Source: Anaerolineae bacterium (GTDB taxonomy: Bacteria; Chloroflexota; Anaerolineae; Anaerolineales; UBA4823). Taken from it: a stretch of DNA of 64,000 bases. Position numbers and translations under genes: made by a program. Below, in pieces: positions 9,701 to 49,988 of the stretch (the first letter of the stretch is position 1; each line of letters opens with the position of its first letter). Location: contig JBFYSP010000031.1 of the NCBI GenBank assembly GCA_041301395.1, forward strand, positions 19,315 through 83,314. The letters are read 5' to 3'. A model generated the notes under the pieces. The model made no database searches, was not told the origin of the DNA, and was given only the letters and a program-made list of their open reading frames with translations.

Positions 9701-9711
9701 GCCTCTGGCTC

Positions 9712-11088: not shown

Positions 11089-11193
11089 CTTCCAATTCCC
11101 TTTGTGCCATACAGAATAGAAAGTAAAAAATCCCCTCACAATTTTACACGAGATTCTTAAAAATCAGAAGAATATACAACTAAAACACTCTTA

Positions 11194-15599: not shown

Positions 15600-15630
15600 A
15601 AATTGCCTCCTTCTGACCAGGGCTACGATA

Positions 15631-17022: not shown

Positions 17023-17053
17023 AGTTTTTCTCCAGCTTGAGGTCATCCGGGGT

Positions 17054-27158: not shown

Positions 27159-27220
27159 TCAACCTGGCAGGTCACACCCGCCAGGATTTTAGACCACATA
27201 TTTATGTAAATAGGTGACCC

Positions 27221-28153: not shown

Positions 28154-28180
28154 GCGCCCCATAACAAACCTGGCATTGCT

Positions 28181-28984: not shown

Positions 28985-29643
28985 TCGAGGCCGATACGCG
29001 CTTCGGTTGTCAGCCTGACCAGCGCCAGGCCGTGCACAGCGCCAACCACCGCCCCCGCCAGCAGCAGCGCTGTGGCAAGTACCGCCGCCGACCCAACTGT
29101 GCTTGCCTGCTTGAAAGCCAGGTCCATGGCGGCGAAGATGATCGCCATCCCGAATGCCCAGGCAATTGCATTAGCCGGTATCCACCACCAGGCTTTTTCC
29201 ACCACCCGGCGTAGTAGACGCCACTGCGGATAGGCGAGCACCACACCCAGCACCAGCCCCATCCCGGCTGCTAGCAGCAGCACAACTGCCGCCGCCGGTT
29301 CCTGCACCTCTTCCCCGCTCTGCTGGGCGCCCATGTCGATCAACGTGCTCGGCAGCGAGCCGAAAAACCAGGCTACCATCGCCCCCGCGATCGTTGCCAT
29401 TACCCAGGCGCGGCGTGCTACCTCGGGGAAAGGACGGCGCAGCACCAGCCACTGCAGTAATCCGACCACGCTGCCTTCAATCGCCCCGCTGGCTGTCACC
29501 AGCAGGATCGATACGATCGACCCTGCAGATCGTGAAATAATCAGGAAGTCGATCGCAAACGTGGCGCCCAACCCAACCAACTCGGCCAGCGCATTAGCCC
29601 CTACCCATCGGAGCCATAGAGATCGTTTCTGGGATGGTTTCAT
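28981..29643 (-). CDS. Integral membrane protein, unknown function
   Basis: 220 aa with about 6 hydrophobic segments and no recognisable motif. Confidence 0.45.
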   Translation of the reverse strand: MKPSQKRSLWLRWVGANALAELVGLGATFAIDFLIISRSAGSIVSILLVTASGAIEGSVVGLLQWLVLRRPFPEVARRAWVMATIAGAMVAWFFGSLPSTLIDMGAQQSGEEVQEPAAAVVLLLAAGMGLVLGVVLAYPQWRLLRRVVEKAWWWIPANAIAWAFGMAIIFAAMDLAFKQASTVGSAAVLATALLLAGAVVGAVHGLALVRLTTEARIGLD

Positions 29644-33090: not shown

Positions 33091-33554
33091 CCGAGCTGGA
33101 TAGCAACCGGCCGCAGAAGGTGGTGATTGTTCCGTGCAGTGGGATTGGTAAAACCTATGGGACAGTCAGCCGAGAAGCGGCCTACATTGTAACGGAGGAT
33201 AACCGCCCAGACGAAACGCAGCTCGTGGCGCTTTCCATGCTGGTGCTGGGCGACGAGGATGCACGCGCCGCGCTGGCCGGCAACCCGGCTATCACCATAG
33301 ATGGCTGCAAGCTGGCTTGTGCCACCAAGATGGTCCAGGAAAGTGGGGGGACGGTCGCCCAGGATTTTGCCGTCCTGGACGTCTACCGGCGCTACCGTCA
33401 GCTCAAACCGCAGGGCATCGCCGAGCTCAACGAAGGCGGCCTGCAGCTGGCCGCAGCTATGGCTCAAGAAATTGCCGAGATCGTCGACGAACTTGTGGAT
33501 GGCGGTCAACGGTCCTCGGTCAGCGGTCAGTCTATCGAGGCGCCCAATGGTTGA
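33087..33554 (+). CDS. DGC-domain (putative zinc/metal-binding) protein 1
   Basis: VVIVPCSGIGKTYG...AITIDGCKLACATKM matches the DGC-domain pattern (CSG near the N-terminus, DGC-x3-C). ATGA overlap with the upstream stop. Confidence 0.6.
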   Translation: MTELDSNRPQKVVIVPCSGIGKTYGTVSREAAYIVTEDNRPDETQLVALSMLVLGDEDARAALAGNPAITIDGCKLACATKMVQESGGTVAQDFAVLDVYRRYRQLKPQGIAELNEGGLQLAAAMAQEIAEIVDELVDGGQRSSVSGQSIEAPNG

Positions 33555-34296
33555 TCTCCCTAAGAAGAAAGTTGGTATAGTGGCCTGCTCTGGCGAAGAG
33601 CTGGCAGAAGGCACTGTGACGCGCCTGGCGGCATTGAAGGTGCTCGAACAGCTCCGCCCGGAAGATACCGTCACTATCTGCCTGCCCTTGTTCCTGGCCG
33701 GCGGTGAGGGCGACCGGGCATTTGCTCGTTTTTATCCCACCATTGCTGTGGATGGCTGCGAGCTGCGCTGTGCAGCGCGTGCCACCGAGATGTATTCCGG
33801 CAAGCCGGCTGCCAGCCTGGTGGTAAGCGAGCTGCTGGCTGAGCAGGGCCTGGATAAGCCGCAGGGCAGGCGGCGCCTCGATGCGGCTGGCAAAGCTGCG
33901 GTGGATGCAACTGCCGGGCGCATGGCAGAGATGGTCGATGAACTGCTGGATAAGCCCTGGAGCCGGCGCTCCGGGCAGTTCATCTCCCTGGACGCGGTCT
34001 CCAGCGCCCCGGCAGCCGAACCGCAGCAGGCCGTTGAAGCCACCTGCTCCTGCGGATCGGGCATCCCGGTTCTTAAGGTCATGATCGAGGGTCAGAGCGT
34101 CACGCTGGTAGCTTTACCGCTCATTTTCGATAGTTTTCGCGAACAGGGCAAGCTCCCTGAAGGTGGAACCAGGCGTGAGCTGTTGGATACTGTGAAGTTA
34201 TACAACCCGATCCCGGCAGGATCGGAAGAAGCCTACGCCGAGACTCTGTTGCGCGAATATACAGCCTACTGTGCTGAGAAGGTTGTGACAAAATGA
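33547..34296 (+). CDS. DGC-domain protein 2 with 120-aa C-terminal extension
   Basis: Start chosen at MVDLPKKKVGIVACSGEELAEG...TIAVDGCELRCAARA. The tracked ORF from 33301 is an out-of-frame overlap with DGC-1. The C-terminal extension carries CSCGSG. 8-nt overlap with the upstream gene. Confidence 0.6.
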   Translation: MVDLPKKKVGIVACSGEELAEGTVTRLAALKVLEQLRPEDTVTICLPLFLAGGEGDRAFARFYPTIAVDGCELRCAARATEMYSGKPAASLVVSELLAEQGLDKPQGRRRLDAAGKAAVDATAGRMAEMVDELLDKPWSRRSGQFISLDAVSSAPAAEPQQAVEATCSCGSGIPVLKVMIEGQSVTLVALPLIFDSFREQGKLPEGGTRRELLDTVKLYNPIPAGSEEAYAETLLREYTAYCAEKVVTK

Positions 34297-34748
34297 GCCC
34301 TAACACCGCCACCTACCATACGACCGTATCCTGGAAGGGGGAGCATTGGGGGCACATCGTCATGGGCAACGGTCCGGAGATGGATTTTTCCGCCCCGCCC
34401 GATGCCCAGGGGCATCCCGGCGTCTTTACCCCCGAGGATGCCTTCGTGGCGGCCGCCAATACCTGCGTCATGATGATGTTCATCTGGGCAGCCGAGCGCT
34501 TCAAGCTCAACCTGCTCTCGTATGAATGCCGGACGGAAGGCACCAAGCTGATCGAGCTGGATCGCACGGAGATATTTACCCACCTGCGCTTCTGGCCGCT
34601 TATCCGCATTGCGGCTGGATCAGAAACCCCTGCCGTAGTCGAATCCAGGACTCGCCGTGCGTTGCAGTCGGCTCAGAAATACAGCCTGGTGGCCAATTCG
34701 GTCAAATCCGAAATCATCATCGAACCACAAATTGAAATTGTTCCATAG
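34293..34748 (+). CDS. OsmC/Ohr family peroxiredoxin-like protein
   Basis: HTTVSWKGEHWGHI...PEDAFVAAANTCVMMMF...ECRTEG follows the OsmC-like pattern. ATGA overlap with DGC-2. Confidence 0.6.
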   Translation: MSPNTATYHTTVSWKGEHWGHIVMGNGPEMDFSAPPDAQGHPGVFTPEDAFVAAANTCVMMMFIWAAERFKLNLLSYECRTEGTKLIELDRTEIFTHLRFWPLIRIAAGSETPAVVESRTRRALQSAQKYSLVANSVKSEIIIEPQIEIVP

Positions 34749-34764
34749 AAAACCGGAGGAATAA

Positions 34765-35010
34765 ATGCTCACCATAAAAGTTTTAGGCCCCGGCTGCCAG
34801 AACTGCAAAAATCTGGAAGCCATTGCCCGCAAAGCGGTTGCCGATTTTGGCCTGCAGGCTGAGATTGTCAAAGTGACCGATTGGGATGAGATTAAAAAAT
34901 ACCCGATCCTGGCGACCCCCGGCCTGGTGGTCAACGAGAAACTGGTCAGCGCCGGGCGTATTCCCAGTGAAGGGGAGGTCTTGACCTGGCTGGCCGATGC
35001 GATGAATTAG
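34765..35010 (+). CDS. Small thioredoxin-fold protein (redox-active disulfide protein 2-like)
   Basis: 81 aa: [18 protein letters not shown]...[13 protein letters not shown]-terminal CxxC with the layout of the small thioredoxin-fold proteins often found in arsR-linked operons. Confidence 0.7.
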
Positions 35011-35031
35011 GTTCCCTGGCCGGGATAGAGT

Positions 35032-35058
35032 GGCGCCGCGTCGTACGGCGCCCTTTTT
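35032..35058 (+). terminator. Rho-independent terminator ending the arsR-headed operon
   Basis: GGCGCCG (35032-35038), 7-nt loop, CGGCGCC (35046-35052), then CTTTTT. Confidence 0.65.
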
Positions 35059-35124
35059 CGAGATATATATATTCAAAAAAGTGAATATTAATATCGATGG
35101 TTCCAGATCTAAAAGGATGCCAGC

Positions 35125-35877
35125 ATGCTTTACTTATTAATTCCCGCCTTGCTTTTTGCGCTGTCCTTCCTGGCGGGGATGATGGGATTAGGTGTGGCAT
35201 TTATTGCTACCCCGATTTTGGGATTATTCGGCTTTGACCTCAAGCATGTCATCATGCCCTGGTCACTGTGGCTGAACGGCTTGACGGCCATCGCTGGCGC
35301 AATTACATTTGCGCGCGCCAAAATGGTCGATTGGCGCACCGCAATACCTCTGTTAATCATCACTACCCTGGTTGCGCCTCTGGGCGTTTGGATGTTGAAC
35401 TTTGCCTCGGTCGCTGTCGTCTGGTGGATTTATGTCGTGGTGCTATTCTTCCTGGCATACCGGATGGCTTTTCCACCCAAACAGGATGATAGCAAAGCGC
35501 TTGCCATCACCGACCGCACACGAGTCAAAGCAGGTTTCTTCAGCGCCTTGATTGGTACATTTGCAGGTTTCCTCGGAGTTGGCCCGGGGTTTTTAATGAT
35601 GCCAACCTTGGTGATGCTGGGATACACTGCCCGTTTGGCAGCCGCCACCAATAGCGTCATCGTCACTCTGCCATCCTTCTCGGCTTTCATCACTCACCTG
35701 CCCAGTGCCCAGTTTGACTGGTTGATGCTGATCCTGACCTCGATTACTGCGGTGATCGGGGCCTGGCTGGGGGCGCGCTTCATGGCCAAACGGGTGAAAT
35801 CCTTGACCCTCAGCCGGATTTTTGCCGCGGCTCTATTACTCCTGGCCATTCAAAGGGCATATTTGCTGATTAGTTAA
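35125..35877 (+). CDS. TauE/SafE family anion (sulfite-type) exporter
   Basis: 250 aa, 7-8 TM, duplicated 4-TM pattern with GMMGLGVAFIATPIL and GFLGVGPGFLMMPTL motifs. Confidence 0.7.
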   Translation: MLYLLIPALLFALSFLAGMMGLGVAFIATPILGLFGFDLKHVIMPWSLWLNGLTAIAGAITFARAKMVDWRTAIPLLIITTLVAPLGVWMLNFASVAVVWWIYVVVLFFLAYRMAFPPKQDDSKALAITDRTRVKAGFFSALIGTFAGFLGVGPGFLMMPTLVMLGYTARLAAATNSVIVTLPSFSAFITHLPSAQFDWLMLILTSITAVIGAWLGARFMAKRVKSLTLSRIFAAALLLLAIQRAYLLIS

Positions 35878-35886
35878 TCCATAAGT

Positions 35887-36246
35887 GTGAAAATGACAAC
35901 GAATTATATAGAGCAATACCAACATCTCGAAGAACGCCTGATTCAATTTGGCAAGGAAATGCCCGGTCCGATGACTGGCTTCGCCCGGTTGCACAAGAAA
36001 GCGGTTGAAGACGGCGCCTTGAGTGCCAAGACCAAAGAATTGATGGCGCTGGCGATCAGCATTGCCGTTCACTGTGAAGGCTGTATCGTCTATCATGTGC
36101 ATGATGCCGTCGCAGCCGGCGCAACTCGCCAGGAACTCTTGGAAACACTTGGCGTCGGATTATTGATGTCCGGTGGTCCAGGCTCGATGTATGTCGCGCT
36201 GGCAATGGATGCCATCGAACAGTTCCTTCCTGATGGCCCTGGTTAG
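35887..36246 (+). CDS. Carboxymuconolactone decarboxylase/AhpD-like protein
   Basis: KTKELMALAISIAVHCEGCIVYH is the AhpD/CMD CxxC helix motif. Confidence 0.7.
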   Translation: MKMTTNYIEQYQHLEERLIQFGKEMPGPMTGFARLHKKAVEDGALSAKTKELMALAISIAVHCEGCIVYHVHDAVAAGATRQELLETLGVGLLMSGGPGSMYVALAMDAIEQFLPDGPG

Positions 36247-36264
36247 GATCGCTGACTTTGCTTA

Positions 36265-36873
36265 TTGGGACATACAGCAGTGGCCGAAAATGAGCGTCGC
36301 TTTGATCCCCAAAAACATGATGCTTTGATCGAGCCCCAGCGGTGGGCGCGCTGGAATCCACCGCGCATGCTCGACCGGGTGGGTATTCGACCTGGACTGC
36401 GCGTGCTGGATTTGGGCTGCGGACCTGGTTTCTGGACGTTGCCGCTGGCCAAAATGGTTGGCACTCAAGGAAAAGTCTGGGCGCTAGATGTCAGCCAGGA
36501 GCTGCTCGACCTGCTGGCAGAGCGAACACCACCTGCCCAGGTGCATCTGCTGCGTGGCGAGCTGCCCACGATCAACTTACCCGACGATTCGGTCGATTTG
36601 GTGTGGGGCGCTTTCGTAATTCATGAGGTTGAACCGCTTGATATATTAATTCGTGAAATCCGTCGCGTTCTGATTAGCCAAGGTAAAGTAGCTATTTTGG
36701 ATTGGCGCCCGGATGCTAAGACTGAGAATAGCCCGCCAAAACAACACCGGCTGGCATCGGGAAAACTGATTGATCTGCTGGGTATGGCTGGCTTTGAAGA
36801 AGTCCGTTTAAACTGGCGCAATAAAGATGCTTACCTGATCGAAGCTCAATCCAGTAGCGATGGCCGCAAATAA
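36265..36873 (+). CDS. Class I SAM-dependent methyltransferase
   Basis: Motif I VLDLGCGPGFWT, post-I VWALDVS, DLVWGAFVIHEV. Confidence 0.7.
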   Translation: MGHTAVAENERRFDPQKHDALIEPQRWARWNPPRMLDRVGIRPGLRVLDLGCGPGFWTLPLAKMVGTQGKVWALDVSQELLDLLAERTPPAQVHLLRGELPTINLPDDSVDLVWGAFVIHEVEPLDILIREIRRVLISQGKVAILDWRPDAKTENSPPKQHRLASGKLIDLLGMAGFEEVRLNWRNKDAYLIEAQSSSDGRK

Positions 36874-36981
36874 TACGATGAACTGCAATTATGGAAGATT
36901 TACTGGTGCGCACATTTTTATTGATACTCAATATCAAACCAGCGTAGACCTTTACGTACTTGCAGGAGGCAGACCAGACCG

Positions 36982-37449
36982 ATGCCGACCAAGCAATCGA
37001 AACAACATTCCAATAAAACCTCACGCTTAGAGCACGTCCTGGTCATCGGCGGTGTAGCGCTGCTGATCATCGCCATTCTGGTGCTCAAACAGAAACCCCA
37101 GAACTCAACGCCTCTGGTCAACTCAACCGATCCCCCCGAAGCGCAGCTCGACCGCGCCTTGCAGACTGGACAGCCTGCGCTGGCTTTCTTCCATTCCAAC
37201 AATTGCCAGCAGTGCATTGTGATGATGGATACCGTGGCGCAGGTATACCCAGAATTTACAGATTCGGTAACGCTGGTGGATGTGAATGTCTATGACGAGC
37301 AAAACCAGGCCTTACTAAAGAGGGTCGGATTGCAGTATATCCCAACCCTGATATTCTTCGATCGTGCCGGTCAGGGAGAAGTCTCTGTCGGGGTAATGGA
37401 AGCAGAGCAGCTAAAGCAAACCCTGGCCAGCCTGGCGGGAGGCAAGTGA
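36982..37449 (+). CDS. Membrane-anchored thioredoxin-like protein
   Basis: N-terminal TM VLVIGGVALLIIAILVL. Thioredoxin fold with FFHSNNCQQCIVM (CxxC) and IPTLIFF. Confidence 0.7.
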   Translation: MPTKQSKQHSNKTSRLEHVLVIGGVALLIIAILVLKQKPQNSTPLVNSTDPPEAQLDRALQTGQPALAFFHSNNCQQCIVMMDTVAQVYPEFTDSVTLVDVNVYDEQNQALLKRVGLQYIPTLIFFDRAGQGEVSVGVMEAEQLKQTLASLAGGK

Positions 37450-38126
37450 GTATGCCCTTCGACCTGTCAGTTTTGCAGGAAATCTCTCTATGGGGCTATC
37501 TGCTGGTCTTCCTGGGCGGTGTGCTCACCAGCATTGGACCATGCAACCTGGCAACCATCCCCTTGATTGTCGGGTACGTGGGTGGCTCGCATGATATTTC
37601 GCGCCGGCGAGCATTCATCCTGTCATCCGCATTCGCGGTGGGCTTAGCCATCACCTTTATGCTGCTTGGGATAGCTGCGGCCCTGCTTGGCGCCTGGCTC
37701 GGCAGCGGCTCACGCTGGTGGTATTACCTGGTGGCTGCGGTTTGTTTTGTGATCGGATTGAACATGTTAGGGATCATCCCGCTCAACCTGCCGATGATGT
37801 TTGGTGGTCTGCGCGAGCGAATTGGGTTGAAGGGCGTCGCCGGCGCGCTGGCATTGGGGCTGGTTTCTGGGTTGGTAGCCTCCCAATGCGCCACCCCCGT
37901 GCTGGCTGCTATTCTGACTTACGTTATGTTGAAAGGGGCATTGATCTATGGCGCGACCCTTTTATTTGTCTACGCCCTGGGTCGCGGGGTACCAGTGGTG
38001 CTGGCTGGAACCTTTACCGGCGCTTTGAAGGGTATGCAAGCCATGGGTCGTTATTCATCGCTGATTGAAAAAGCCAGCGGCGTGATCGTCCTGGCCGTTG
38101 GGTTCTATTTCTTATGGATTGCGTGA
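37446..38126 (+). CDS. ccdA: Cytochrome c biogenesis/thiol-disulfide electron transporter CcdA (DsbD core family)
   Basis: 6 TM with the two conserved Cys contexts SIGPCNLATIPL and ASQCATPVLAA. 4-nt overlap with the thioredoxin gene. Confidence 0.8.
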   Translation: MSMPFDLSVLQEISLWGYLLVFLGGVLTSIGPCNLATIPLIVGYVGGSHDISRRRAFILSSAFAVGLAITFMLLGIAAALLGAWLGSGSRWWYYLVAAVCFVIGLNMLGIIPLNLPMMFGGLRERIGLKGVAGALALGLVSGLVASQCATPVLAAILTYVMLKGALIYGATLLFVYALGRGVPVVLAGTFTGALKGMQAMGRYSSLIEKASGVIVLAVGFYFLWIA

Positions 38127-38133
38127 GACCGCC

Positions 38134-38562
38134 ATGAGTACTCAGAAACGAAAAGCGATCTTGTTGGGCATACTCGGCCTGGTTCTAATCATTATCGGGA
38201 TCAAGTACCTCCCGTATTTCCTGGCTGTGGCCAGCCAACAATCCGAAATAATAGATAAACCGGTCATCCTGTTTTTTAGCGTGGATGAACCCTGCGAGTG
38301 CATGGTCGATCTAACTGAGGGCGCTGAAACGCAGATGGCAAACTGGCCAGTCGAGCAGCGAGGTGGGATTCCGGTAGTCCGAATTGCCATTAATATACGT
38401 GATGACCTGCAGGTGAAGTACATGGTTTTTCGCGCCCCAAGCCTGGTATTAATAAATGACCAGGACCAGGTCGCCTGGCGGCAGGATTATCCCCTGATCG
38501 AGGGTGGGCCATTTGATTTAGAAGAATTGGAGGCGGCAATTGCAGAGTTGGGTACAAAATAA
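38134..38562 (+). CDS. Membrane-anchored hypothetical protein, possible degenerate thioredoxin fold
   Basis: Start at MSTQKRKAILLGILGLVLIIIGI (TM anchor). PVILFFSVDEPCECMVD...RAPSLVLIN resembles a thioredoxin-like beta-alpha-beta core with CxC instead of CxxC. Confidence 0.4.
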   Translation: MSTQKRKAILLGILGLVLIIIGIKYLPYFLAVASQQSEIIDKPVILFFSVDEPCECMVDLTEGAETQMANWPVEQRGGIPVVRIAINIRDDLQVKYMVFRAPSLVLINDQDQVAWRQDYPLIEGGPFDLEELEAAIAELGTK

Positions 38563-39409: not shown

Positions 39410-39952
39410 ATGCTGATCGAAAAATACGACCTTGAAGTCTATACGCCACCTTGCGATCCAGGCGCCGAACGTTTCGCGGCGCGGGCTCGCCTGGATGTTG
39501 ATATCTCTGAGATTTTGCCCTATCTCAATACTACTCTGCGCGGCGCAGTCTATCTCAAAGAAGCCAATGCCTTAACCTGGAAGAAAGGCGGGCACAACAT
39601 TGCCTTCCATGCCTACGAAGTTGTCACCAGCAATGTCGAAGACCGGGAAGGTGCAGAGAAGGAGCTCAAAGGGCTGATTGAACTGGTCAATCGTACTTGG
39701 GAGCGGCGAGACGAGATCACCCCTGACACAACCATCCACCAAAGACCCACGCCGATGGCGATCTATAAACTGCTGCCGCAGACCAACTGCAAGCAGTGCA
39801 GCGAGCCAACCTGCTATACCTTTGCCCTAAAACTGGCCACCTCGCAAAAGAAGCTGGCCGATTGCCCCCCACTCACCGAGCCGGTGTTTGCCGAAAAGAA
39901 AGCCGCTTTAGATAGCCTGATCATCGAAGCTCCAGCGATTGGTAAGGAGTGA
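39410..39952 (+). CDS. Uncharacterised protein A: novel N-terminal domain plus C-terminal 4Fe-4S-type domain (CFeSP/RnfB N-terminal-like)
   Basis: C-terminus YKLLPQTNCKQCSEPTCYTFALKLATSQKKLADCPPL (CX2CX4CX16CP). I recognise this as the putative Fe-S cluster domain found at the N-terminus of the corrinoid Fe-S protein large subunit and RnfB. I do not recognise the 110-aa N-terminal domain. Confidence 0.6.
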   Translation: MLIEKYDLEVYTPPCDPGAERFAARARLDVDISEILPYLNTTLRGAVYLKEANALTWKKGGHNIAFHAYEVVTSNVEDREGAEKELKGLIELVNRTWERRDEITPDTTIHQRPTPMAIYKLLPQTNCKQCSEPTCYTFALKLATSQKKLADCPPLTEPVFAEKKAALDSLIIEAPAIGKE

Positions 39953-40160: not shown

Positions 40161-40706
40161 GTGAATTACCTCGAGTCTATCGCCCTGGTCCGTACCTTGC
40201 CTTGCCTGGCATACCCGGGTAGGATTATTGTGATTGGCAAACCGTCCAATTCTCTCGAGCAGGTTTTACCATACCTGGCCAGTCTACCGGGAGTGATTGC
40301 CTATAACCCCGAAACGTTGACGCTCACATTTCGCCGCCAGCCCGGATTTATGACCCTCTACCCAGACAAGGTGTACATCACCCAGATCAAGAATCCTGAA
40401 GAGGGATTGGAGCTGCTTGAGGCTCTGGTCGCTGCCATTAATGCCACCTGGGAAGGCCGTGCTGACCTTGTCGCCATGACGGCTTTCCGCACAGCGCCGC
40501 GCCCGCTGGATATTTGGACGCTCCTGCCGCAGACTAATTGCAAACTATGCGGCGAAGATACCTGCCTGGCTTTTGCCTGTAATCTGCTATTATATAAAAG
40601 GGAACTAGCTGATTGCCGGCCGCTGCAAGAAGACCCGGCTTTTTCTGATCGGCTGGCTACCCTGGAAGCAATGATTCAGGCAAAAATCCAGCCGGAGGCA
40701 ATATGA
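40161..40706 (+). CDS. Uncharacterised protein B: paralogue of protein A (same N-terminal domain plus C-terminal Fe-S-type domain)
   Basis: GTG start. Colinear with protein A: Cys at residue 15, LPYL motif, INATWEGR versus VNRTWERR, and WTLLPQTNCKLCGEDTCLAFACNLLLYKRELADCRPL. Confidence 0.6.
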   Translation: MNYLESIALVRTLPCLAYPGRIIVIGKPSNSLEQVLPYLASLPGVIAYNPETLTLTFRRQPGFMTLYPDKVYITQIKNPEEGLELLEALVAAINATWEGRADLVAMTAFRTAPRPLDIWTLLPQTNCKLCGEDTCLAFACNLLLYKRELADCRPLQEDPAFSDRLATLEAMIQAKIQPEAI

Positions 40707-41920: not shown

Positions 41921-42110
41921 ATCTTTTCCTCTCAAGCAAGTGCCTGCTCCAGGCCGAGCTGCTTCCCGGCGGCAAAATGCACCGGAAAGGCCTCAGGTCT
42001 CACCCCTGGAGTTTCAGTAACCCGCAATAGAATTCATACCTTATAATCAACTGAATTCCAGCTGCCAGGTCGCCTGGCAATGAAATTATTCTTGTTGGCT
42101 TATTGTTGAA

Positions 42111-44942
42111 ATGCAACCCAATAGAATTCGCCTATCAGCTCAGTCTTACCTTTCCCTGGCGTTTATCCAGGGTTTGCTGTTCCTGGCCGTCATGCTGCGG
42201 GAGCCCTCCGAGAGCGAGCAGGCCGTGCTGTTTGGCTTTTCCGCCACCCGGGTTGTGCTGGCGCTGGCTCTCCTGGCAATCAGCCTGGGGTGGGGGTTCT
42301 TACTGCTGGCTTCGTTTTTCTGGCGGGATTGGTTTGATCGGCAAGCCTCTATACTGGTAGCCTGGTTAAGCCGGCCGAAGGTGTGGGGCTGGGTGTTTGT
42401 GCTTTCCCTGGCCGGCTTCTGCAGCGGGCCGTATCTGCTGCCGCTCACGCCGGAAGTGGACGAGCTCTTTACCCGCATGATTATTGATCGGGTAATGCCT
42501 TTGTTCCTTTACCTCAGCGGTTTGTGCGCTCAGAACCTGCTGGTCTTGGGCGTGCTGCGCGCACCTCTTGTGCGGCAATACAAGAAAACCCTTTTCCTGT
42601 TCCTGTTTTTTTACCTGTTGTTGATTTTGCTGGCCTTTCACCCCTGGCTGTCGATCGTTACTGATGCAGCCGGTTTTCGCGAACGGGCTTTGGGATGGAA
42701 TGAAATGGGCGCCCCAATCCTGGATACACAGGTATTCCTGGCCTGGCTGGTGGCCTTGGGACTGGCCGGCCTGTTCTCGACGAGAATGTCGTTTACCGGC
42801 AAGGTGCAGTCCTCCAGGCATTTCTCTCCGCGCCTGGTAGATTGGACCATCGTTCTAGGTCTATGGCTGGCGGGCGCCGTCCTGTGGAATAGCCTCCCCA
42901 TCATCGACCAATACTATATCTCCGGGCCTCTTGCCCCAAACTTTGAATACTACCCAAAATCGGATGCCCTGGGTTATGACCTCACTGCGCAAATCATGCT
43001 GGCGGGTGAAGGCTACCATTTTGTCACCGATCTGCTCAGTCACCGGCCTATGCACACCCTGTACCTGACTCTCTTGCATCTCGTCGCCGGGCAGGACTAT
43101 GAGCGCGTGGTATTTTTTCAGGTCTGCCTCCTGGCGATATTCCCGGTCCTGGTTTACCTGCTGACACGGAAACTTGCCAACCGCCTGGCAGGATTGATCG
43201 CCGCTCTGCTCGTACTATTGCGACAGGCAAATTCTATTGCTGAAGCGAGTAGCTTTAGCTCGCATGCAAAATCTCTATTGGTCGATCTGCCCGGGGCGGT
43301 AGGTGTCGCTTTGCTGCTCCTGCTGCTGTTAAGGTGGTTGGAAGAGCCTCGCCGCAGGCTGGTGGATCTGCTTCTGGCGGGAGGGGTATGGGGCATGCTG
43401 ATCCTGCTGCGCCAGGAATTCGCCGGCCTGGCGCTCACCATCCTGCTGGCTTTGGTGGTCGCCTATTGGAGGCTGCCCCGCTGGATGATAAAAGGCGGGC
43501 TGGTCTTTGGCCTTGGTGCGCTGCTGGTACTATCCCCCTGGCTATATCGTAACTCCCGGGTGGCAGGGTTGACCTTTCGTGATACGATCCGCGTTCAGGC
43601 TGGTTTTGTCCGTTGGCGCAACATGGCCAACACCTCCGCTGCTGCCGAGCAAGAAGCTGATACTCCCAATCTACAGTCGCCTGCGGTGAGGGTTCCACCG
43701 CTCGGCACGCCGTTTCCGCGCTTTCCCGTTGCCCTGGCTCCCGCGGCCTCTCCTCTGCCTCAGACGAAAGACGCCTCACCCGGCTTCGAGGAGGTAGATT
43801 CAGCGCCCCAATTGCCGGGGACTCCGGCTCCATCGGCAGGTGAAATTGGGTCACAGCTTCCGCTAAATGGTACACAGCGACCCTCTTTCACTGGCGGGCT
43901 TGGGGTCTATGCCGAGTCAGTCCTGATGCATATGATCAACAATCAGGATCAGCTCGTCTTCTACCTGCCGGGCAGCTTCCGGATCATTGAAAGCCTGATC
44001 GGCTTTCTGGGGCATCAGAATCCGCACAGGTTGTGGGCTGAATGCTGTTCAATGAAGAATTACATGCGGCGGTTGACATTTTGGCCGGAATGGGATGGGC
44101 GCTTCTTGCGCCAAAGCATCCTGGTGCTGCTGGCAAACCTGTTCTTGCTTTCCGTAGGAATTGCAGTAGCCAGTCGGAGTCCCCGGCGAATTGCGGGTCT
44201 GCTCCCGCTACTGGTAGCGGTTAACTATTTCCTGGTCAATGCCGCCATCCAGAATTCCGGCGGGCGCTACATCATTCCGGTGGATTGGGTCAGCCTGCTG
44301 TATTATTCCGCCGGTCTTTCCGCCGTGAGCTGGTGGCTGGTTAGCATCTTGAGGGGGAGATTTGCCTCCTTAATCAACGCCCAGCCGGGCGATACCGCCT
44401 TCCAGTCGCTCTTCGTAGATAAATCTCCCCTTGCTGAGGAACCCCGATCACGCCAGCGCTTTTCGTTACACAACCCCTGGCTGGTTGCCGCTCTGGTCGG
44501 CTTGTTCCTGGTAGGCTGCGCCCTGCCGCTGCTGGAAAAGGCTATCCCTCAGGCAAATCCCCCGCAGGTGCAGGCTGCCATGCTCGAGCAGCTGCTGGAA
44601 TCGGATCGGCTCTCTGACAGCGGGAGTAACCGCCTGCAAAACCTGCTGGCTGAGCCGGGTTCGGCGGTTTATGCCGGCAGGGCAATTTACCCGCGCTTTT
44701 TTAAAACCGGCGAGGGTGAGACGGATTCGGGCAATCCATTCACCCCCCGCCCCTACAATTACCTGGGGTTTTACCTGGCTGGCCCGGAAAGCCGCTCTGT
44801 TGTCATGCCGCTCGAAGCGCCTCCACAATGGCTGCCCCATACCACCGATGTGCTGGTGTTTGCTGGTGAAGATGGCCGTGCCGCCGCCATCGCGGTCTTC
44901 GATCGGGATCACCAGCCGGTGCAACTGCTGTACAGGCCCTGA
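42111..44942 (+). CDS. Giant polytopic membrane protein, GT-C-like glycosyltransferase, copy 1
   Basis: 943 aa and more than 15 TM. From about residue 290, SDALGYD...HRPMHTLYLTLLHLVAGQDYERVVFFQVCLLAIFPVLVYLLTRKLANRLAGLIAALLVLL resembles the first loop and helices of ArnT/PMT-type GT-C enzymes. Internal Pro-rich linker. Assignment is by resemblance only. Confidence 0.5.
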   Translation: MQPNRIRLSAQSYLSLAFIQGLLFLAVMLREPSESEQAVLFGFSATRVVLALALLAISLGWGFLLLASFFWRDWFDRQASILVAWLSRPKVWGWVFVLSLAGFCSGPYLLPLTPEVDELFTRMIIDRVMPLFLYLSGLCAQNLLVLGVLRAPLVRQYKKTLFLFLFFYLLLILLAFHPWLSIVTDAAGFRERALGWNEMGAPILDTQVFLAWLVALGLAGLFSTRMSFTGKVQSSRHFSPRLVDWTIVLGLWLAGAVLWNSLPIIDQYYISGPLAPNFEYYPKSDALGYDLTAQIMLAGEGYHFVTDLLSHRPMHTLYLTLLHLVAGQDYERVVFFQVCLLAIFPVLVYLLTRKLANRLAGLIAALLVLLRQANSIAEASSFSSHAKSLLVDLPGAVGVALLLLLLLRWLEEPRRRLVDLLLAGGVWGMLILLRQEFAGLALTILLALVVAYWRLPRWMIKGGLVFGLGALLVLSPWLYRNSRVAGLTFRDTIRVQAGFVRWRNMANTSAAAEQEADTPNLQSPAVRVPPLGTPFPRFPVALAPAASPLPQTKDASPGFEEVDSAPQLPGTPAPSAGEIGSQLPLNGTQRPSFTGGLGVYAESVLMHMINNQDQLVFYLPGSFRIIESLIGFLGHQNPHRLWAECCSMKNYMRRLTFWPEWDGRFLRQSILVLLANLFLLSVGIAVASRSPRRIAGLLPLLVAVNYFLVNAAIQNSGGRYIIPVDWVSLLYYSAGLSAVSWWLVSILRGRFASLINAQPGDTAFQSLFVDKSPLAEEPRSRQRFSLHNPWLVAALVGLFLVGCALPLLEKAIPQANPPQVQAAMLEQLLESDRLSDSGSNRLQNLLAEPGSAVYAGRAIYPRFFKTGEGETDSGNPFTPRPYNYLGFYLAGPESRSVVMPLEAPPQWLPHTTDVLVFAGEDGRAAAIAVFDRDHQPVQLLYRP

Positions 44943-45032
44943 ACTATCGCAGATTCCTGCCTTATAATGTGCAGGTGTTTCCTTGCCGTTTACCCGGATT
45001 ATGGCACGCCACCATGCTGATCGCTCGAAAAC

Positions 45033-47876
45033 ATGCCCGCCGCTAAGATTCGCCTGACCGCCCGGGTCTACCTGCTCCTGGCGCTCCTCCAGGGCTTGCT
45101 GGTCCTGGGAGTGCTGCTGCGCCAGCGCTCCGAAAGCGAGCAGGCTGTCATGCTGGGCTTATCCGCCACCCGTATTACCCTGGCAGCGGCCCTGTTGGCC
45201 ATCGTCGTTAGCTGGGCGTTATTGCTGCTGCTTTCTTTTGTCAGGCCGGCCTGGTTCGATCAGGCGTCTTGGCGCTTATCAGCCTGGCTCAGCCGGCCCA
45301 AAGTTTGGGGCTGGGCTTTCGTTGTTTCCCTGGCCGGTTTCTTCAGCGGGCTGTACCTGCTGCTGCTCACCCCGGAAGTGAGCGAGCCCTTCACCCGGGC
45401 GATTTTCGACCGGCTTCTGCCGCTCCTTCTTTATCTAAGCGGCCTGTGTGCATTCAACCTGCTGGTGCTGGGCGCTTTGCGAGCTCCCACCCTGCGCCAG
45501 AATAAGAAACCGCTGGCCGGGTTCCTGGCCTTATACCTGCTGCTCGTCCTGCTGGCCTTGCTTCCCTGGCTGTGGCTGGCGGGGCAGGTTGCCACCCGGC
45601 CGGAACGCCTGGTTGGTCTGAACGCGCTGGGCGTTCCGGTGCTGGAAACCCAGGTGCTCCTGGGCCTGCTGCTGGCCTTGACGATCTCTGGAGTATTTCT
45701 CTGGCGCCTGCCTTTCACCGGCGGATGGCGCCTGGCGGATCGCCTCTCCCCCCGGGCGATCGATGCCGTTCTCGCTCTGGCACTCTGGCTGCTGGCGGTC
45801 GTTCTGTGGAGCAGCATCCCGATTACCCCCAACTGGTTCGTCTCCGAGCCTCGCCCGCCAAACTTCGAGCCCTACCCCAACTCGGATGCCCTGGGCTATG
45901 ACCTTGCCTCCCAGATTATGCTGGTGGGAGAAGGCTATCATTTCGTTAACAACCTGCTCAGCCACCGGCCCATTCACACCCTGTACCTGACTCTGCTGCA
46001 TGCAGCTGCCGGGCAGGAGTATAACCGCCTGGTGTTCTTCCAGATTGTCCTGCTGGCCTTATTCCCGGTGCTGGTTTACCTGCTGGGGCGCAAGCTGACC
46101 AACCGCCTGGCCGGGCTGCTGGCTGGGTTGTTGATTATCCTGCGCGAAGCCAATTCCGTTGCCGGAGCCGGTGTGATCACCAGCTCGCATGTTAAATCCT
46201 TGATGGTTGACTTGCCGGGCGCGCTCGGGGTCGCCCTGCTGCTCTTGCTCCTGGCTCGCTGGCTGGAAAATCCCCGCCAGCGGCTGCTCGACCTGCTCCT
46301 GGCGGGCGGGGTGTGGGGGATGCTGATCCTGCTGCGCCAGGAATTCGCCGGGCTGGCGCTCACCATCCTGCTGGCTTTGCTGGTTGCCTATTGGAAGCTG
46401 CCCCGCTGGCTGCTGAAAGGCGGGCTGATCTTCACCCTGGGCGCCTTGCTGGTGCTCTCGCCCTGGTTGTATCGCAATACTCGCATGGTCGGTCTGAGCC
46501 TGGAAGAGATCGTTCGCTACCAGGTTGGCTTTCTGCGCTGGCGTTATTCGGCCAACACTGCCAGCGCCACAGAGTTTGAAGCCTTTGTTCGCAGCCAGCC
46601 GACCCCCACACCCACCCCGCTGGTGCCCGCCCTGGGCGAGCCTTTCCCACGCCAGATTTTCGTCCCGCCAACCGCCACGCCGCTGCCTGCCGGCCCGACC
46701 CCCAGGGTGCAAGCCACTGCCACTACGCCGCCAACCCAGGCCACCCCCACGACCCAGCCGGTCACAGAGAGCGGCAGCGAAACCTCTCCAGGCGGCCCGA
46801 CTCGCCTGCCCTTCAGCGATAGGCTGGGGACTTTCGTCGAGACCGGCTTGTTGCATACCGTCAACAGCCAGGACCAGCTGCTCTTTTACCTGCCGGGGAG
46901 CCTGCGCCTCTTTGACAGCCTGACCGGCTTTTTGGGGCACCGCGATGCGCTCAAGCTGTGGGAAGAATGCTGCTCCCTGGAAAGCTACCTGCGCCGCCTG
47001 CCATTCTGGCACAAGTGGGAGGGCAGCATCCCATCCCAGAGCCTGCTGCTGCTGCTGGCAAACCTGTTCCTGCTGGCGCTGGGTCTGTCCGCTGTCTGGA
47101 AGGGAGGCCGGCGCCTGGCCGGCTTGCTCCCGCTGGTGGCGGCGGGTAACTACATCCTGGTCAATGCCGCCGTCCAGAATTCCGGCGGGCGCTACATCCT
47201 GCCCGTGGATTGGGTCAGCCTGTTGTATTATTCCGCCGGCCTGGCAGCCGTAAGCTGGTGGCTCATCGGCATCCTGAGGGGAAAAGCTGTTTCCATCGCC
47301 GCTTCGCAGCCGGGTGAAAGTTCTTTCCAGTCGCTCTTTATCAGCGAGACTCCACTCGCTGTGGAACCTGCCCCTCGTCAGCGATTCTCGCTGCGCAACC
47401 CCTGGCTGGTTGGCACACTGATCGGTATGTTGCTGGTGGGTTGCGCCTTGCCACTCTTGGAAAGCGCCATTCCCAAAACCTACCCCCCTACGGTGCAGGC
47501 CGCCATGCTTGAAGGGCTGCTGGCCTCAGACCGGCTTACCCCCAGCGAGCGCGGCCACCTGGATGACCTGCTGGCTGAACCGGGTTCGGCGGTCTATGCC
47601 GGGCGGGCGCTCTACCCGCGCTTTTTTAAGGCTGAGCAGGGTGAGGTGGGCTCGCGCAACCCGCTTGGCCCCCGCCCCTATGCCCGCCTGGGTTTCTACC
47701 TGGCCGGACCGGACAGCCAGGCTGTGATCATGCCGCTGGAAGATGCTCCCGGCTGGCTGCCCCACACCACCGATGTGCTGGTGATTGCCGGCGCGGACCG
47801 CCGCGCCGCCGCAATTGCCATTTTCGACGCAGACCTCCAGCCGGTGCAACTGCTGCTCGGCAAAGAGAATCCGTAG
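45033..47876 (+). CDS. Giant polytopic membrane protein, GT-C-like glycosyltransferase, copy 2
   Basis: 947 aa, colinear paralogue of 42111-44942 along its full length. Internal Pro/Thr-rich linker (QPTPTPTPLVP...TATTPPTQATPTTQP). Confidence 0.5.
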   Translation: MPAAKIRLTARVYLLLALLQGLLVLGVLLRQRSESEQAVMLGLSATRITLAAALLAIVVSWALLLLLSFVRPAWFDQASWRLSAWLSRPKVWGWAFVVSLAGFFSGLYLLLLTPEVSEPFTRAIFDRLLPLLLYLSGLCAFNLLVLGALRAPTLRQNKKPLAGFLALYLLLVLLALLPWLWLAGQVATRPERLVGLNALGVPVLETQVLLGLLLALTISGVFLWRLPFTGGWRLADRLSPRAIDAVLALALWLLAVVLWSSIPITPNWFVSEPRPPNFEPYPNSDALGYDLASQIMLVGEGYHFVNNLLSHRPIHTLYLTLLHAAAGQEYNRLVFFQIVLLALFPVLVYLLGRKLTNRLAGLLAGLLIILREANSVAGAGVITSSHVKSLMVDLPGALGVALLLLLLARWLENPRQRLLDLLLAGGVWGMLILLRQEFAGLALTILLALLVAYWKLPRWLLKGGLIFTLGALLVLSPWLYRNTRMVGLSLEEIVRYQVGFLRWRYSANTASATEFEAFVRSQPTPTPTPLVPALGEPFPRQIFVPPTATPLPAGPTPRVQATATTPPTQATPTTQPVTESGSETSPGGPTRLPFSDRLGTFVETGLLHTVNSQDQLLFYLPGSLRLFDSLTGFLGHRDALKLWEECCSLESYLRRLPFWHKWEGSIPSQSLLLLLANLFLLALGLSAVWKGGRRLAGLLPLVAAGNYILVNAAVQNSGGRYILPVDWVSLLYYSAGLAAVSWWLIGILRGKAVSIAASQPGESSFQSLFISETPLAVEPAPRQRFSLRNPWLVGTLIGMLLVGCALPLLESAIPKTYPPTVQAAMLEGLLASDRLTPSERGHLDDLLAEPGSAVYAGRALYPRFFKAEQGEVGSRNPLGPRPYARLGFYLAGPDSQAVIMPLEDAPGWLPHTTDVLVIAGADRRAAAIAIFDADLQPVQLLLGKENP

Positions 47877-47888
47877 GAATAAAAAAAC

Positions 47889-49988
47889 TTGCCTGACACC
47901 GCATCTGGAAAATCGCGTTCTTCTTTGCGTCTGGTGCAGGCGGCTTGCATCCTGCTCTTTGCCGTTCCGGCATTGTACTGGCTGCTGCAGACGCTGGGAG
48001 TCCCGCTCCCTTATGTGTCGCTCACCCGGCTTCACTTCTTCATCCTGCTGGCCGGCGAGCTGCTGATCGGGGTGTTGGTCTTCCCCCGCTATGCCCGCGG
48101 CCCCTGGAATGCCCGCCAGGTGGGCCTTCTGGGGCGCGATTTCCTGGCGGCCAACGCCGTCTTTTTGTTCCCCTTCGTTAAGTTTTATTCCAACCCGCTG
48201 CGGCAAGAAATCTTGCTCATCCAGCAGGCACGGCCGTACCTGCTGGCGTTCTACCTTGGGTTGTTGCTGGTGATCGTGGGGCTATTATTTGCCCTGGGAG
48301 ACCTGCGGCGCCTCTCTGCCTGGATCACCGGCCGCATTGATGCGCAGCGCTCGCGGGATGACGATGCTGAAGCCGCCCGACGGGCGCGATTTGACAAAAA
48401 ATACCCGCGCCTGGCACACCTGCCGTTGCTGGGTGGCCTCGGCCGGGGCGTGTACCGGGAGGGCGCGGGTACTCTCCTGGCTTTTCTGGCGATTGCCGCC
48501 CTGGGCCTGGCTCTGCGCCTGTGGAAGCTGGGCGCGCTGCCGCCCTATATCGATGAGTTTAACCATCTGAATGCCGCCCGCGACCTGCTCCAGGGGCTGC
48601 CGCTTGCCGAGCTGGCTTATCGCCGCAGCCTGTACCCTGTCACGCTGCCGGCCTGGCTGTCGTTCGAGGTGCTAGGCCAGAGCCTGTTTGCCGCCCGGTT
48701 GCCGGGTGTGCTGGCTAACATCCTGGCGCTGGTTCCACTCTACCTGCTGGCAAGACGGGTCAACAAGCCGACTGCCTTGCTGGCGGCTGCTTTGTTCAGC
48801 TTCAGTCCCTGGGTGATTGCCGCCTCACGTAACCTGCGCGAGTATGCCTGTTATCCACTGATCTTTTATACCGTTGGCCTGGTAATGGTGAAGCTCTACG
48901 AAAGTCTGCCGGATCGCATTGATTTCCGGCGTGACTTCCGTTTGCTCTTCTCCTGGCACAACCTGGCCTACCTGGGGCTGCTGATCTTCGTGCTGGTTTA
49001 CGCCATCTATATCGACCCGTATTCCACCCTGAAAATGATCCTGATCTTGTACCTGGCCTTTGGCCTGCTGCTGGTTAGGAAGATCGATTTTCACCAGCCG
49101 GCTAACTTGGCCTTCGGTGCTGTCGTCCTGGGGGCGTTCGCCCTGCTGACCCTGGTGATCGTGCAGTTCACCGGGTCGCATTATTTCCTGGCAAATTTTG
49201 CCGGGCGTGAATATGCCTTTTTCCCTTCCCTGTTTTTCGAGAAGCCTGCCCAGCAGTGGTATTTCAATCGCCCGCTGATCTCGCTGGCGATCTTTGCCCT
49301 GGCACTGCTGGCCACGCCGCTGCTCGACCGGCGCAAGATCGTCCTGCCGTTATCGCTGCTCACTTTTCTGGGCGGCCTGTTCACCATCACCTTCCTGTTC
49401 CTCAAGGGCGACCGGCCGCGCTACGCCATGAACATCGAGATCTGGTTTATCCTGCTGATAGCCGCCGGGCTGTTTGCTGCCCTGGCGTTGGCTGATGAAC
49501 TGGTTGGCCGGCGCTTTTATGGCCTGCCGATCTTTGGCACGATATACCGCTGGGTCGCCTTTGCTGTAATCTTGCTGCTGTTCTGGAACCTGCCCCAGAC
49601 CCTTCCGGCCAGTGTGCATACCCTGCCCGGCTGGCACCCGGTCACCCAGGAATACCATGCCGATCTGGCCCCGGCCTTGACCTATTTCTCGGTGCACGCC
49701 TCTCCGCAGGATGCCATCATCACGACGGATTACGTCAACCCGTACCAGCAGTACTTTTTCCCTGGCCTGTTTTCGGGCCATCCACGCTTCCGCTACAACC
49801 CAATCGATCCCGAAGCTGTCGCTAAAATCTACGCAGCCATCGGCGCCCACCCCAGCGGCTGGATTATTTTCGACTACCCGCGCGGCTACGATTGGTCGCG
49901 GCCGCTCGCACTGCGCGGTTTTGAGCATAACGGCAAGCCGGTGAAGTACCTGGGCTGGTTTGGCGACGCGTATGTATTTCGCTGGTAA
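47889..49988 (+). CDS. GT-C glycosyltransferase (ArnT/PMT_2, GT39/GT83-like)
   Basis: 699 aa. LALRLWKLGALPPYIDEFNHLNAARDLL...SLYPVTLPAWL...ARLPGVLANILALVPLYLLARRV...AAALFSFSPW is the classic ArnT/PMT_2 N-terminal pattern. TTG start 12 nt after copy 2. Confidence 0.6.
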   Translation: MPDTASGKSRSSLRLVQAACILLFAVPALYWLLQTLGVPLPYVSLTRLHFFILLAGELLIGVLVFPRYARGPWNARQVGLLGRDFLAANAVFLFPFVKFYSNPLRQEILLIQQARPYLLAFYLGLLLVIVGLLFALGDLRRLSAWITGRIDAQRSRDDDAEAARRARFDKKYPRLAHLPLLGGLGRGVYREGAGTLLAFLAIAALGLALRLWKLGALPPYIDEFNHLNAARDLLQGLPLAELAYRRSLYPVTLPAWLSFEVLGQSLFAARLPGVLANILALVPLYLLARRVNKPTALLAAALFSFSPWVIAASRNLREYACYPLIFYTVGLVMVKLYESLPDRIDFRRDFRLLFSWHNLAYLGLLIFVLVYAIYIDPYSTLKMILILYLAFGLLLVRKIDFHQPANLAFGAVVLGAFALLTLVIVQFTGSHYFLANFAGREYAFFPSLFFEKPAQQWYFNRPLISLAIFALALLATPLLDRRKIVLPLSLLTFLGGLFTITFLFLKGDRPRYAMNIEIWFILLIAAGLFAALALADELVGRRFYGLPIFGTIYRWVAFAVILLLFWNLPQTLPASVHTLPGWHPVTQEYHADLAPALTYFSVHASPQDAIITTDYVNPYQQYFFPGLFSGHPRFRYNPIDPEAVAKIYAAIGAHPSGWIIFDYPRGYDWSRPLALRGFEHNGKPVKYLGWFGDAYVFRW

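Follow-up and report, generated by a model that had tools for sequence, protein, structure and literature searches.

Tandem GT-C-type membrane glycosyltransferases of an Anaerolineae bacterium belong to a large Chloroflexota family and may decorate an envelope glycan

What do three large membrane proteins encoded side by side in the genome of an Anaerolineae bacterium glycosylate, and do they belong together? The question arises from a stretch of 64,000 nucleotides (nt) of contig JBFYSP010000031.1 (assembly GCA_041301395.1), referred to here as the window, in which a first-pass annotation had described three consecutive genes for proteins of 943, 947 and 699 amino acids (aa), separated by 90 and 12 nt, as GT-C-like enzymes of a putative envelope or protein glycosylation locus. 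The coordinates of the three genes, denoted as genes 1, 2 and 3, match exactly. They are real genes, as each has full-length homologues with conserved columns and the gene callers of public assemblies give identical product lengths, and the opposite-strand open reading frames (ORFs) overlapping the trio are the usual by-product of DNA with 57-64% G+C. The AT skew is strongly negative over 42-50 kb, which fits the T-rich codons of Leu/Phe-rich membrane proteins. As argued below, all three proteins are very probably GT-C enzymes, genes 1 and 2 belong to a large and uncharacterised family and probably decorate an envelope glycan, and gene 3 is a neighbour from a different family.

The GT-C identity of the proteins is well supported. 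All three are polytopic and match the Pfam family PMT_2 (PF13231) with 37.6, 30.9 and 32.6 bits for genes 1, 2 and 3, respectively, above the curated gathering cut-off of 26.1 bits, and all carry a conserved Asp or Glu in a first loop that is predicted to face outward. Genes 1 and 2 are 62% identical from end to end, and both keep every residue that is invariant in their family. We built an AlphaFold2 model of the gene 1 protein on a 20-sequence family alignment, which reached a mean predicted local distance difference test score (pLDDT) of 75 and a predicted template modelling score (pTM) of 0.81. When this model was compared with PDB entries using Foldseek, the only credible matches were GT-C enzymes (probability 0.9-1.0), namely AglB (3wak, E 4.7e-3), PglB, human and canine STT3, ArnT (5f15/5ezm), Pmt1, Pmt4, DPY19 and ALG3. 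The alignments to AglB, PglB and STT3 were long, covering 617-842 columns, and Pmt1 and Pmt4 gave the best local superpositions, with root-mean-square deviations of 4.2-6.5 Å over about 270-290 columns (4.2 Å over 272). Structure prediction for gene 1 thus does return a GT-C fold, and the earlier description of GT-C-like enzymes holds on three counts, the PMT_2 scores of all three proteins, the GT-C-only fold matches of gene 1 and the invariant acidic residues of loop 1. The NCBIfam models gave sub-threshold hints only (archaeo_STT3, LA_3751/2 and Agl23), and TIGR04154 reached E=0.026 and 12.9 bits against a cut-off of 450. Relatives of genes 1 and 2 are listed publicly as 'hypothetical protein', with one labelled 'glycosyltransferase family 39 protein' by NCBI, and a search of the literature turned up no account of the family or of its Anaerolineae cluster. 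The first-pass annotation could not match the architecture of the 943- and 947-aa proteins to any described enzyme; no named or characterised relative was found here either, but the architecture is not rare, since it is that of a large family.

The layout of the two long proteins was derived from AlphaFold2 secondary structure and a simple count of hydropathy and positive-inside charges rather than from a dedicated topology predictor, and it contains about 17 hydrophobic helices. In gene 1, six helices (residues 1-228) are followed by a K/R-rich loop (227-241), a transmembrane (TM) helix (242-265) and a loop of 64 residues (266-329), which is acidic, poor in K/R and folded into short helices. 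Six TM helices (330-484) then make up the PMT_2 region. The external segment after them (479-663) combines a disordered linker with conserved helices carrying the invariant H607, P620 and W658, and four further TM helices (664-813) bear an invariant external motif, S716-G-G-R719-Y-I-x-P-V-D725-W726, ahead of a C-terminal domain of 130 residues with a GRAxYPR motif in which G856 and P861 are invariant. Across 20 family sequences, with identities to gene 1 down to 26%, 32 columns are invariant, including S284-D285, R371, P394, R434, H607, S716-G717-x-R719 and D725-W726, and D392 and E436 are invariant among the seven closest members only. Counting helices from the acidic loop would place D285, R371, D392, R434/E436, the SGGRY...DW motif, the linker and the C-terminal domain on the extracytoplasmic side. 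Judged from its conservation, D285 is the candidate catalytic base, and by analogy with the C-terminal carbohydrate-binding module (CBM) of GT136 (PMC11127046), the C-terminal domain may be an acceptor- or carbohydrate-binding domain.

Much of this arrangement had already been recognised at first pass. The low-complexity linker was found, rich in Pro and Thr and with a pLDDT below 50 over residues ~506-595, the C-terminal motifs GRAxYPR and WLPHTTDVLV are both real, and the extra N-terminal membrane domain, the further TM segments and the soluble C-terminal domain are all present and covered by no Pfam model. The N-terminal domain had been put at about 260 aa and roughly seven TM segments; it exists, but it spans about 240 aa and six helices, helix 242-265 being TM1 of the core. 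The length of the linker is variable across the family. The linkers of gene 1 (43626-43895) and gene 2 (46545-46820, with PTPTPTPLVP...TATTPPTQATPTTQP in gene 2) resemble the target regions of bacterial O-glycosylation, and, as they are predicted to be extracytoplasmic, self- or cross-glycosylation is conceivable.

To place genes 1 and 2, we turned to the size and surroundings of their family, the '9xx-aa' family. Scanned exhaustively with HMMER, 1.84 billion representatives yielded 1,567 clusters at E<=1e-3, of which 752 reached E<=1e-30, and most of the best 150 are 850-980 aa long; a word-indexed search had returned only 20 members. Scanning one genome per GTDB species with two peptide patterns from the family gave 79 loci, all from Chloroflexota metagenome-assembled genomes (MAGs) and mostly labelled Anaerolineae, Anaerolineales or Anaerolinea, although a scan by two patterns could miss members outside Chloroflexota that lack them. 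ORFs were called at all 79 loci, clustered and assigned by Pfam. The recurrent neighbours are GT4 (54 loci), GT2 (37), Wzy_C (33), a Wzz-like two-TM coiled-coil protein of 352 aa without Pfam hit (u352; 31), an InhA-like_MAM protein of ~696 aa with an HExxH motif (31), a polytopic protein of ~698 aa without Pfam hit (mem698; 28), a WecA/MraY-type Glycos_transf_4 protein (19) and a sulfotransferase (19).

Two arrangements stand out among these loci. Type A has the fixed order GT2(~500)-GT4-GT2(~317)-WecA-u352-Wzy_C-u352-Wzy_C-GT-C(9xx)-MAM protein-sulfotransferase and is represented, with similar loci, about 26-31 times (L002, L005, L010, L016-L018, L029, L036, L069 and others), often with pantothenate genes behind it. 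The canonical type A GT-C is always followed by the MAM/InhA-like protein, which is membrane-anchored and carries the HExxH motif. Type B (L041, L045, L049, L053, L055, L057, L067, L073 and L077) runs GT4-GT2-GT2-GT4-mem698-GT-C(9xx)-radical SAM/B12-GT2(GtrB/DPM1-like)-methyltransferase-GLF-like flavoprotein-second GT-C(9xx)-another PMT_2 protein, and thus has two paralogues of the family in addition to further PMT/PMT_2 proteins; its radical SAM enzyme is B12-binding and its flavoprotein is GLF/amine-oxidase-like. Seven of the eight short c9 GT2 proteins end in two TM helices, in the manner of GtrB/DPM1-like enzymes. For the ~317-aa GT2 of type A such helices were considered but not supported, with zero or one weak C-terminal segment. 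The recurrent polytopic proteins of 26 type A loci are Wzy_C, GT-C and WecA only, so that no flippase candidate was found among them, although small four-TM proteins would escape this filter. The type A cluster probably builds an undescribed, possibly sulfated surface glycan.

The N-terminal six-helix bundle (helices 3-30, 45-70(-87), 89-115, 119-156, 161-188 and 205-225 in gene 1) is shared throughout this family, since most of the best 150 representatives align from about residue 10, and S44, P130, W196, P202 and Q207 are its conserved positions. Modelled alone with AlphaFold2, it reached a pLDDT of 77 and a pTM of 0.74, and Foldseek found no credible match for it among PDB entries (best E 0.8, probability 0.25, TM 0.25). 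For five members of the family, the N-terminal and C-terminal halves were also searched separately against Pfam at E<=10, which returned noise only. Kinship with the N-terminal extension of gene 3 was also considered and rejected, at an hhalign probability of 0.7%. One idea, which we regard as a long shot, is that the bundle is a built-in lipid-carrier module, either a flippase or scramblase or a docking unit for the carrier of a polyprenyl-linked donor, fused to the GT-C core. Such a module would explain why type A clusters have no recognisable Wzx/MATE/GtrA-type flippase and, if real, would define a new 'two-in-one' class of GT-C enzymes and a lineage-specific pathway for an envelope glycan.

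The pair in the window lies outside any type A or type B cluster. In a neighbour-joining tree of 83 family members, drawn without support values, genes 1 and 2 fall within the type A clade, where their branch is long. Their closest relative, 98% identical (L008), belongs to MAG MFD03899.bin.2.126, in which a canonical type A copy is present as well (L036: ...u352-Wzy_C-GT-C-MAM-sulfotransferase). Considering this copy together with the nesting in the type A clade, genes 1 and 2 look like paralogues that left the cluster and were then duplicated in tandem. A protein from another metagenome, P0003, is 63% identical to gene 2 and 57% to gene 1, and its gene stands where gene 2 does, immediately before a gene 3 orthologue (64% identical) and the same CE7, GH3 and DUF1269 flank. 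On these sequence identities, the duplication that gave genes 1 and 2 is old, P0003 being closer to gene 2. On a contig of the same MAG that is 95-98% identical to the window (L001/L008, 12923-15757), the orthologue of gene 2 is spread across three reading frames as a 704-aa call and fragments. However, the canonical type A GT-C of this MAG (L036) is also called at only 591 aa, and intact 947-aa copies of gene 2 are found in other assemblies, which makes assembly indels likelier than pseudogenisation.

Gene 3 belongs to a different PMT_2 family. It has a PMT_2 match at residues 255-328, an N-terminal extension of about 190 aa and about 13 hydrophobic segments by hydropathy, and BLASTP found no relation to gene 1; gene 3 has no pairwise similarity to either gene 1 or gene 2. 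A word-indexed search gave 12 hits for its family, in which R246, R290, R314 and R317-E318 are invariant in addition to the D222-E223 pair. This pair lies in an acidic, K/R-poor loop (218-264) after a TM helix (191-217) and a cytoplasmic loop with 11 K/R, and D222, together with E223, is the candidate catalytic base of gene 3 on the strength of its conservation. While the hhalign comparison of the gene 1 and gene 3 families is weak overall (probability 26%, E 7e-4), it sets P282-x-S-D285 of gene 1 on P219-Y-I-D222 of gene 3 and aligns the next TM helix as well, so the two families share a GT-C core register.

We also considered gene 3 as a conserved partner of the 9xx-aa family and rejected it, as tblastn found it only in the near-identical contig and nowhere else (~77 loci). 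Gene 3 adjoins a gene of the gene 1/2 type in close relatives only (L001/L008 and L088), and its homologues at 51-53% identity stand alone among unrelated genes. Because distant gene 3 homologues stand alone and gene 3 is absent from other loci of the family, the trio is a shallow, lineage-specific juxtaposition. The 7.9 kb therefore do not form the coherent glycosylation locus first proposed: gene 3 is linked to the pair in close relatives only, the flanks are catabolic, and those downstream are convergent with the trio.

Taken all together, our preferred reading, to which we give a probability of roughly 60%, is that these proteins are polyprenyl-phosphate-sugar-dependent GT-C enzymes that decorate an envelope glycan outside the membrane. 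As in other GT-C enzymes, the donor would be a polyprenyl-phosphate-linked sugar, used on the outer side of the cytoplasmic membrane, with the loop-1 Asp as base (D285 in genes 1 and 2; in gene 3, D222 with E223). The GtrB-like GT2 of type B clusters favours a lipid-linked donor indirectly. Genes 1 and 2 would attach additional sugars to the envelope glycan of the type A lineage, or to one related to it, and draw on donors that other parts of the genome supply; the acceptor may be held by their C-terminal domain, and the two may act as a heterodimer. Gene 3 is an independent PMT_2-type GT-C. That the acceptor of genes 1 and 2 is an envelope polysaccharide is suggested by the polysaccharide clusters in which their family occurs, by the GtrB-like synthase of type B and by a core and C-terminal beta-rich domain that recall GT136.

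Several points weigh against this reading. Within the window, neither tblastn with 17 neighbour families nor Pfam on the other ORFs found a GT2, GT4, WecA, Wzy or flippase-type gene, which bears out the absence of a donor synthase and flippase reported at first pass; with no donor synthase, flippase or acceptor-pathway gene nearby, donor and acceptor are assigned purely by deduction. Type A clusters contain no GtrB-like two-TM GT2, so the canonical enzyme could use an oligosaccharide linked to undecaprenyl diphosphate (Und-PP) instead of a monosaccharide donor. The top-ranked fold matches of gene 1 are oligosaccharyltransferases and not polysaccharide-modifying GT-Cs, and the global TM-scores of its model are low (0.19-0.27), as expected for a distant multi-domain relative. 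A sequence search of the PDB, with single sequences and with family profiles of both families, matched no chain. To these are added the simple derivation of the layout, the tree without support values and the reach of the two-pattern genome scan.

Protein O-glycosylation is a possible alternative, although a clearly less probable one. PMT-like enzymes would move a sugar such as mannose from a polyprenyl-phosphate-sugar onto Ser/Thr of secreted or membrane proteins, and their targets could be S-layer or sheath proteins, lipoproteins, or Pro/Thr-rich linkers like those of the genes' own products. The sole curated family match, PMT_2, is named 'dolichyl-phosphate-mannose-protein mannosyltransferase', but this model is broad and also covers ArnT-like and polysaccharide-modifying GT-Cs, and Pfam found none of the domains PMT (PF02366), MIR and PMT_4TMC in the three proteins at E<=1. 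Such an activity would agree with the PMT-style D-E pair in loop 1 of gene 3, the local superposition of Pmt1 and Pmt4 on the gene 1 model and the family 39 label that NCBI gives to one relative; moreover, tandem paralogues recall the Pmt1-Pmt2 heterodimer, and the MAM/InhA-like protein behind the type A enzyme could be a protein substrate or partner. The context of the family, however, is dominated by WecA, Wzz-like, Wzy_C and GT2/GT4 proteins.

More doubtful is an activity like that of oligosaccharyltransferases, ligases or polymerases, in which a whole Und-PP-oligosaccharide, the product of WecA and GT2/GT4, would be moved to protein, peptidoglycan or a growing chain, with the copies in the window as specialised versions. 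AglB, PglB and STT3 are the top structural matches over their long alignments, and many TM helices with a C-terminal external domain are also found in STT3-type enzymes, but the WWDYG motif is absent, Pfam gives no STT3 hit and the NCBIfam hint at E=0.026 is far below its cut-off. The type A clusters, which have neither a GtrB-like synthase of monosaccharide donors nor a recognisable flippase, would suit such a transfer; yet the roles of polymerase and ligase are already taken there by two proteins with Wzy_C domains, and the window holds no pathway for a lipid-linked oligosaccharide.

We consider it very unlikely that the trio is coupled to its flanking genes as a locus for glycan remodelling or recycling. 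The carbohydrate-active flanks named at first pass were found by Pfam as described. Upstream are a PIG-L-type deacetylase, two small PF04060 Fe-S proteins and a GDE_C/GH100-like hydrolase; downstream, a CE7 (AXE1) acetyl-xylan esterase and a GH3 enzyme. A gene 2-type GT-C, gene 3, CE7, GH3 and DUF1269 do recur together in L001/L008 and in the 57-64% identical L088/L090, but close relatives show such shallow synteny whether or not a function is shared, and the linkage is gone in all more distant homologues of either family. In addition, CE7 and GH3 lie on the opposite strand and convergent with the trio, and the further catabolic genes of the window (GH38, GH4, MFS and a solute-binding protein) are typical of sugar scavenging. 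Finally, it is highly improbable that the pair consists of decaying or redundant copies without distinct function, as their position outside the canonical cluster, their long branch and the broken gene 2 orthologue might suggest, because 943 and 947 codons kept intact at 62% identity point to long-term purifying selection, every family-invariant residue is retained in both, and the breaks in the MAG are likelier assembly indels given the intact copies elsewhere.

The features of the three genes to which decoration of an envelope glycan is ascribed are collected in Table 1.

Table 1. Coordinates of genes 1 to 3 and of their features in the window
Feature	Position	Strand	Remark
Possible -10 element of gene 1	42042-42047	+	TATAAT hexamer within CCTTATAAT, 64 nt upstream of gene 1; read from sequence
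Gene 1	42111-44942	+	ORF with ATG start, 943 aa; GT-C glycosyltransferase of the Anaerolineae '9xx-aa' family
Gene 1, N-terminal six-helix bundle, residues 1-240	42111-42830	+	AlphaFold2 secondary structure; family-wide, without known relative
Gene 1, loop-1 motif (Y-)P-x-S284-D285-A-x-x-Y-D, residues 282-290	42954-42980	+	S284 and D285 invariant in 20 sequences
Gene 1, PMT_2 (PF13231) match, residues 311-479	43041-43547	+	Pfam; conserved GT-C membrane module
Gene 1, Pro/Thr/Ser-rich linker, residues ~506-595	43626-43895	+	pLDDT <50; gap-rich alignment columns
Gene 1, C-terminal soluble alpha + beta domain, residues 814-943	44550-44939	+	Strands 852-941; pLDDT 85-92
Possible -10 element of gene 2	44963-44968	+	TATAAT hexamer within CCTTATAAT, 65 nt upstream of gene 2
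Gene 2	45033-47876	+	ORF with ATG start, 947 aa; tandem paralogue of gene 1
Gene 3	47889-49988	+	ORF with TTG start, 699 aa; GT-C of a different PMT_2 family
Gene 3, D222-E223 (motif PPYIDE)	48552-48557	+	Loop-1 acidic pair, invariant in 12 sequences, like the PMT/ArnT-type 'DE' motif

The two hexamers are part of a longer element, ATTC-N-T-N-CCTTATAAT, which is shared by the regions upstream of gene 1 (42034-42047) and gene 2 (44955-44968) and suggests that the tandem duplication carried the promoter region along. Read from the sequence in this way, the element suggests separate promoters for genes 1 and 2, with genes 2 and 3 as a transcription unit of their own; across the 12-nt gap, gene 3 is probably co-transcribed with gene 2. 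A generic two-hexamer promoter scan did not report the TATAAT upstream of gene 1 and gave one weak internal promoter-like site, and a terminator scan found terminator-like sites at the level expected by chance.

Elsewhere in the window, two paralogous proteins of about 180 aa (39410-39952 and 40161-40706), each with a C-terminal PF04060 'putative Fe-S cluster' motif, are encoded directly upstream of the GDE_C/GH100-like hydrolase, and the close relative L001 has one called copy. A block on the minus strand (7301-17139) encodes a dCache/HAMP/GAF histidine kinase, a solute-binding protein, an MFS sugar transporter, a GH38 alpha-mannosidase of 1063 aa and a GH4 enzyme, which suggests sugar utilisation with scavenging of mannosides. 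Redox and thiol genes for a DGC domain protein, an OsmC-like protein, a TauE/SafE exporter, a methyltransferase and a DsbD-type transmembrane protein occupy 33301-38562 and are partly syntenic with L001. ORFs of 220-518 aa without a Pfam match at E<=1e-4 lie at 59-979, 19443-20999, 25959-26810, 27155-28222 and 28981-29643; an ABC-ATPase family gave a tblastn match at 26427-27125, and the simple ORF calls around there may be wrong.

The window genes are thus tied to a large GT-C family that is uncharacterised and whose genome loci found here all come from Chloroflexota, mostly Anaerolineae. The trio is a peripheral offshoot and defines no pathway alone. Of greater interest is what lies outside the window, namely a GT-C family with an orphan six-helix N-terminal module in a conserved and apparently flippase-less polysaccharide cluster. 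A membrane module of this kind is unprecedented on a GT-C scaffold, which makes the family a reasonable target for structural and biochemical work. The envelopes of Chloroflexota are poorly understood, and the type A cluster probably makes its surface glycan in abundant filamentous bacteria of sludge, sediment and soil.

Among known systems, ArnT (GT83) resembles the window proteins in the GT-C fold match, the PMT_2-type module, the acidic residue of loop 1 and conserved basic residues that possibly bind the lipid phosphate. The window proteins, however, are 150-400 aa longer and have extra domains, the NCBIfam output contains no ArnT model, and the window has no ArnC/ArnB-type neighbours. The lipopolysaccharide (LPS) pathway is reported as missing in Chloroflexota, whose several outer envelope layers are thought to be polysaccharide or protein (PMC13319060), which argues against an ArnT-like role on lipid A. 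The GT66 enzymes (AglB/PglB/STT3) rank first by fold and likewise place a C-terminal extracytoplasmic domain after many TM helices, but with TM-scores of only ~0.25; a regular expression for WWD[YWF]G finds nothing in the three proteins, and there is no PF02516 hit. The GT39 enzymes (Pmt1/2/4 and bacterial PMT) share the PMT_2 match, the best local superposition, the D-E pair of gene 3 and paralogue pairs that could heterodimerise, but genes 1 and 2 carry S-D rather than D-E, and the context of their family is polysaccharide assembly. The mycobacterial Emb and Aft enzymes (GT53/GT85 and relatives) are also large GT-Cs with C-terminal carbohydrate-binding domains and tandem paralogues (embCAB), and they use polyprenyl-phosphate sugars to build wall polysaccharides; the fold hit to EmbB is weak (6x0o, probability 0.23), sequence similarity is absent, and the domain order is another.

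The last comparison is with GT136, represented by ORF12 of Citrobacter youngae, which combines 11 TM helices with an alpha domain that follows TM1 and a beta-rich CBM at the C-terminus; its partners are a polyprenyl-phosphate sugar synthase and a flippase (PMC11127046). Genes 1 and 2 differ in their additional six-helix N-terminal bundle and long Pro-rich linker, they have no detectable sequence relation to solved or named GT-Cs beyond PMT_2, and their host is a Chloroflexota bacterium without LPS. Of the three components, synthase, flippase and GT-C, the first two are absent from the 64-kb window, though they may be encoded elsewhere in the genome, and neither is recognisable in type A. Compared by the description in that paper, genes 1 and 2 nevertheless resemble GT136 in their 11-TM core, in the helical insert that bears the Asp behind TM1, and in the external, beta-rich domain at the C-terminus. 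Three-component systems of the GT136 kind, with Gtr-type O-antigen glucosylation among them, act after polymerisation on a surface polysaccharide, as genes 1 and 2 may, and type B clusters likewise hold a GtrB-like GT2.

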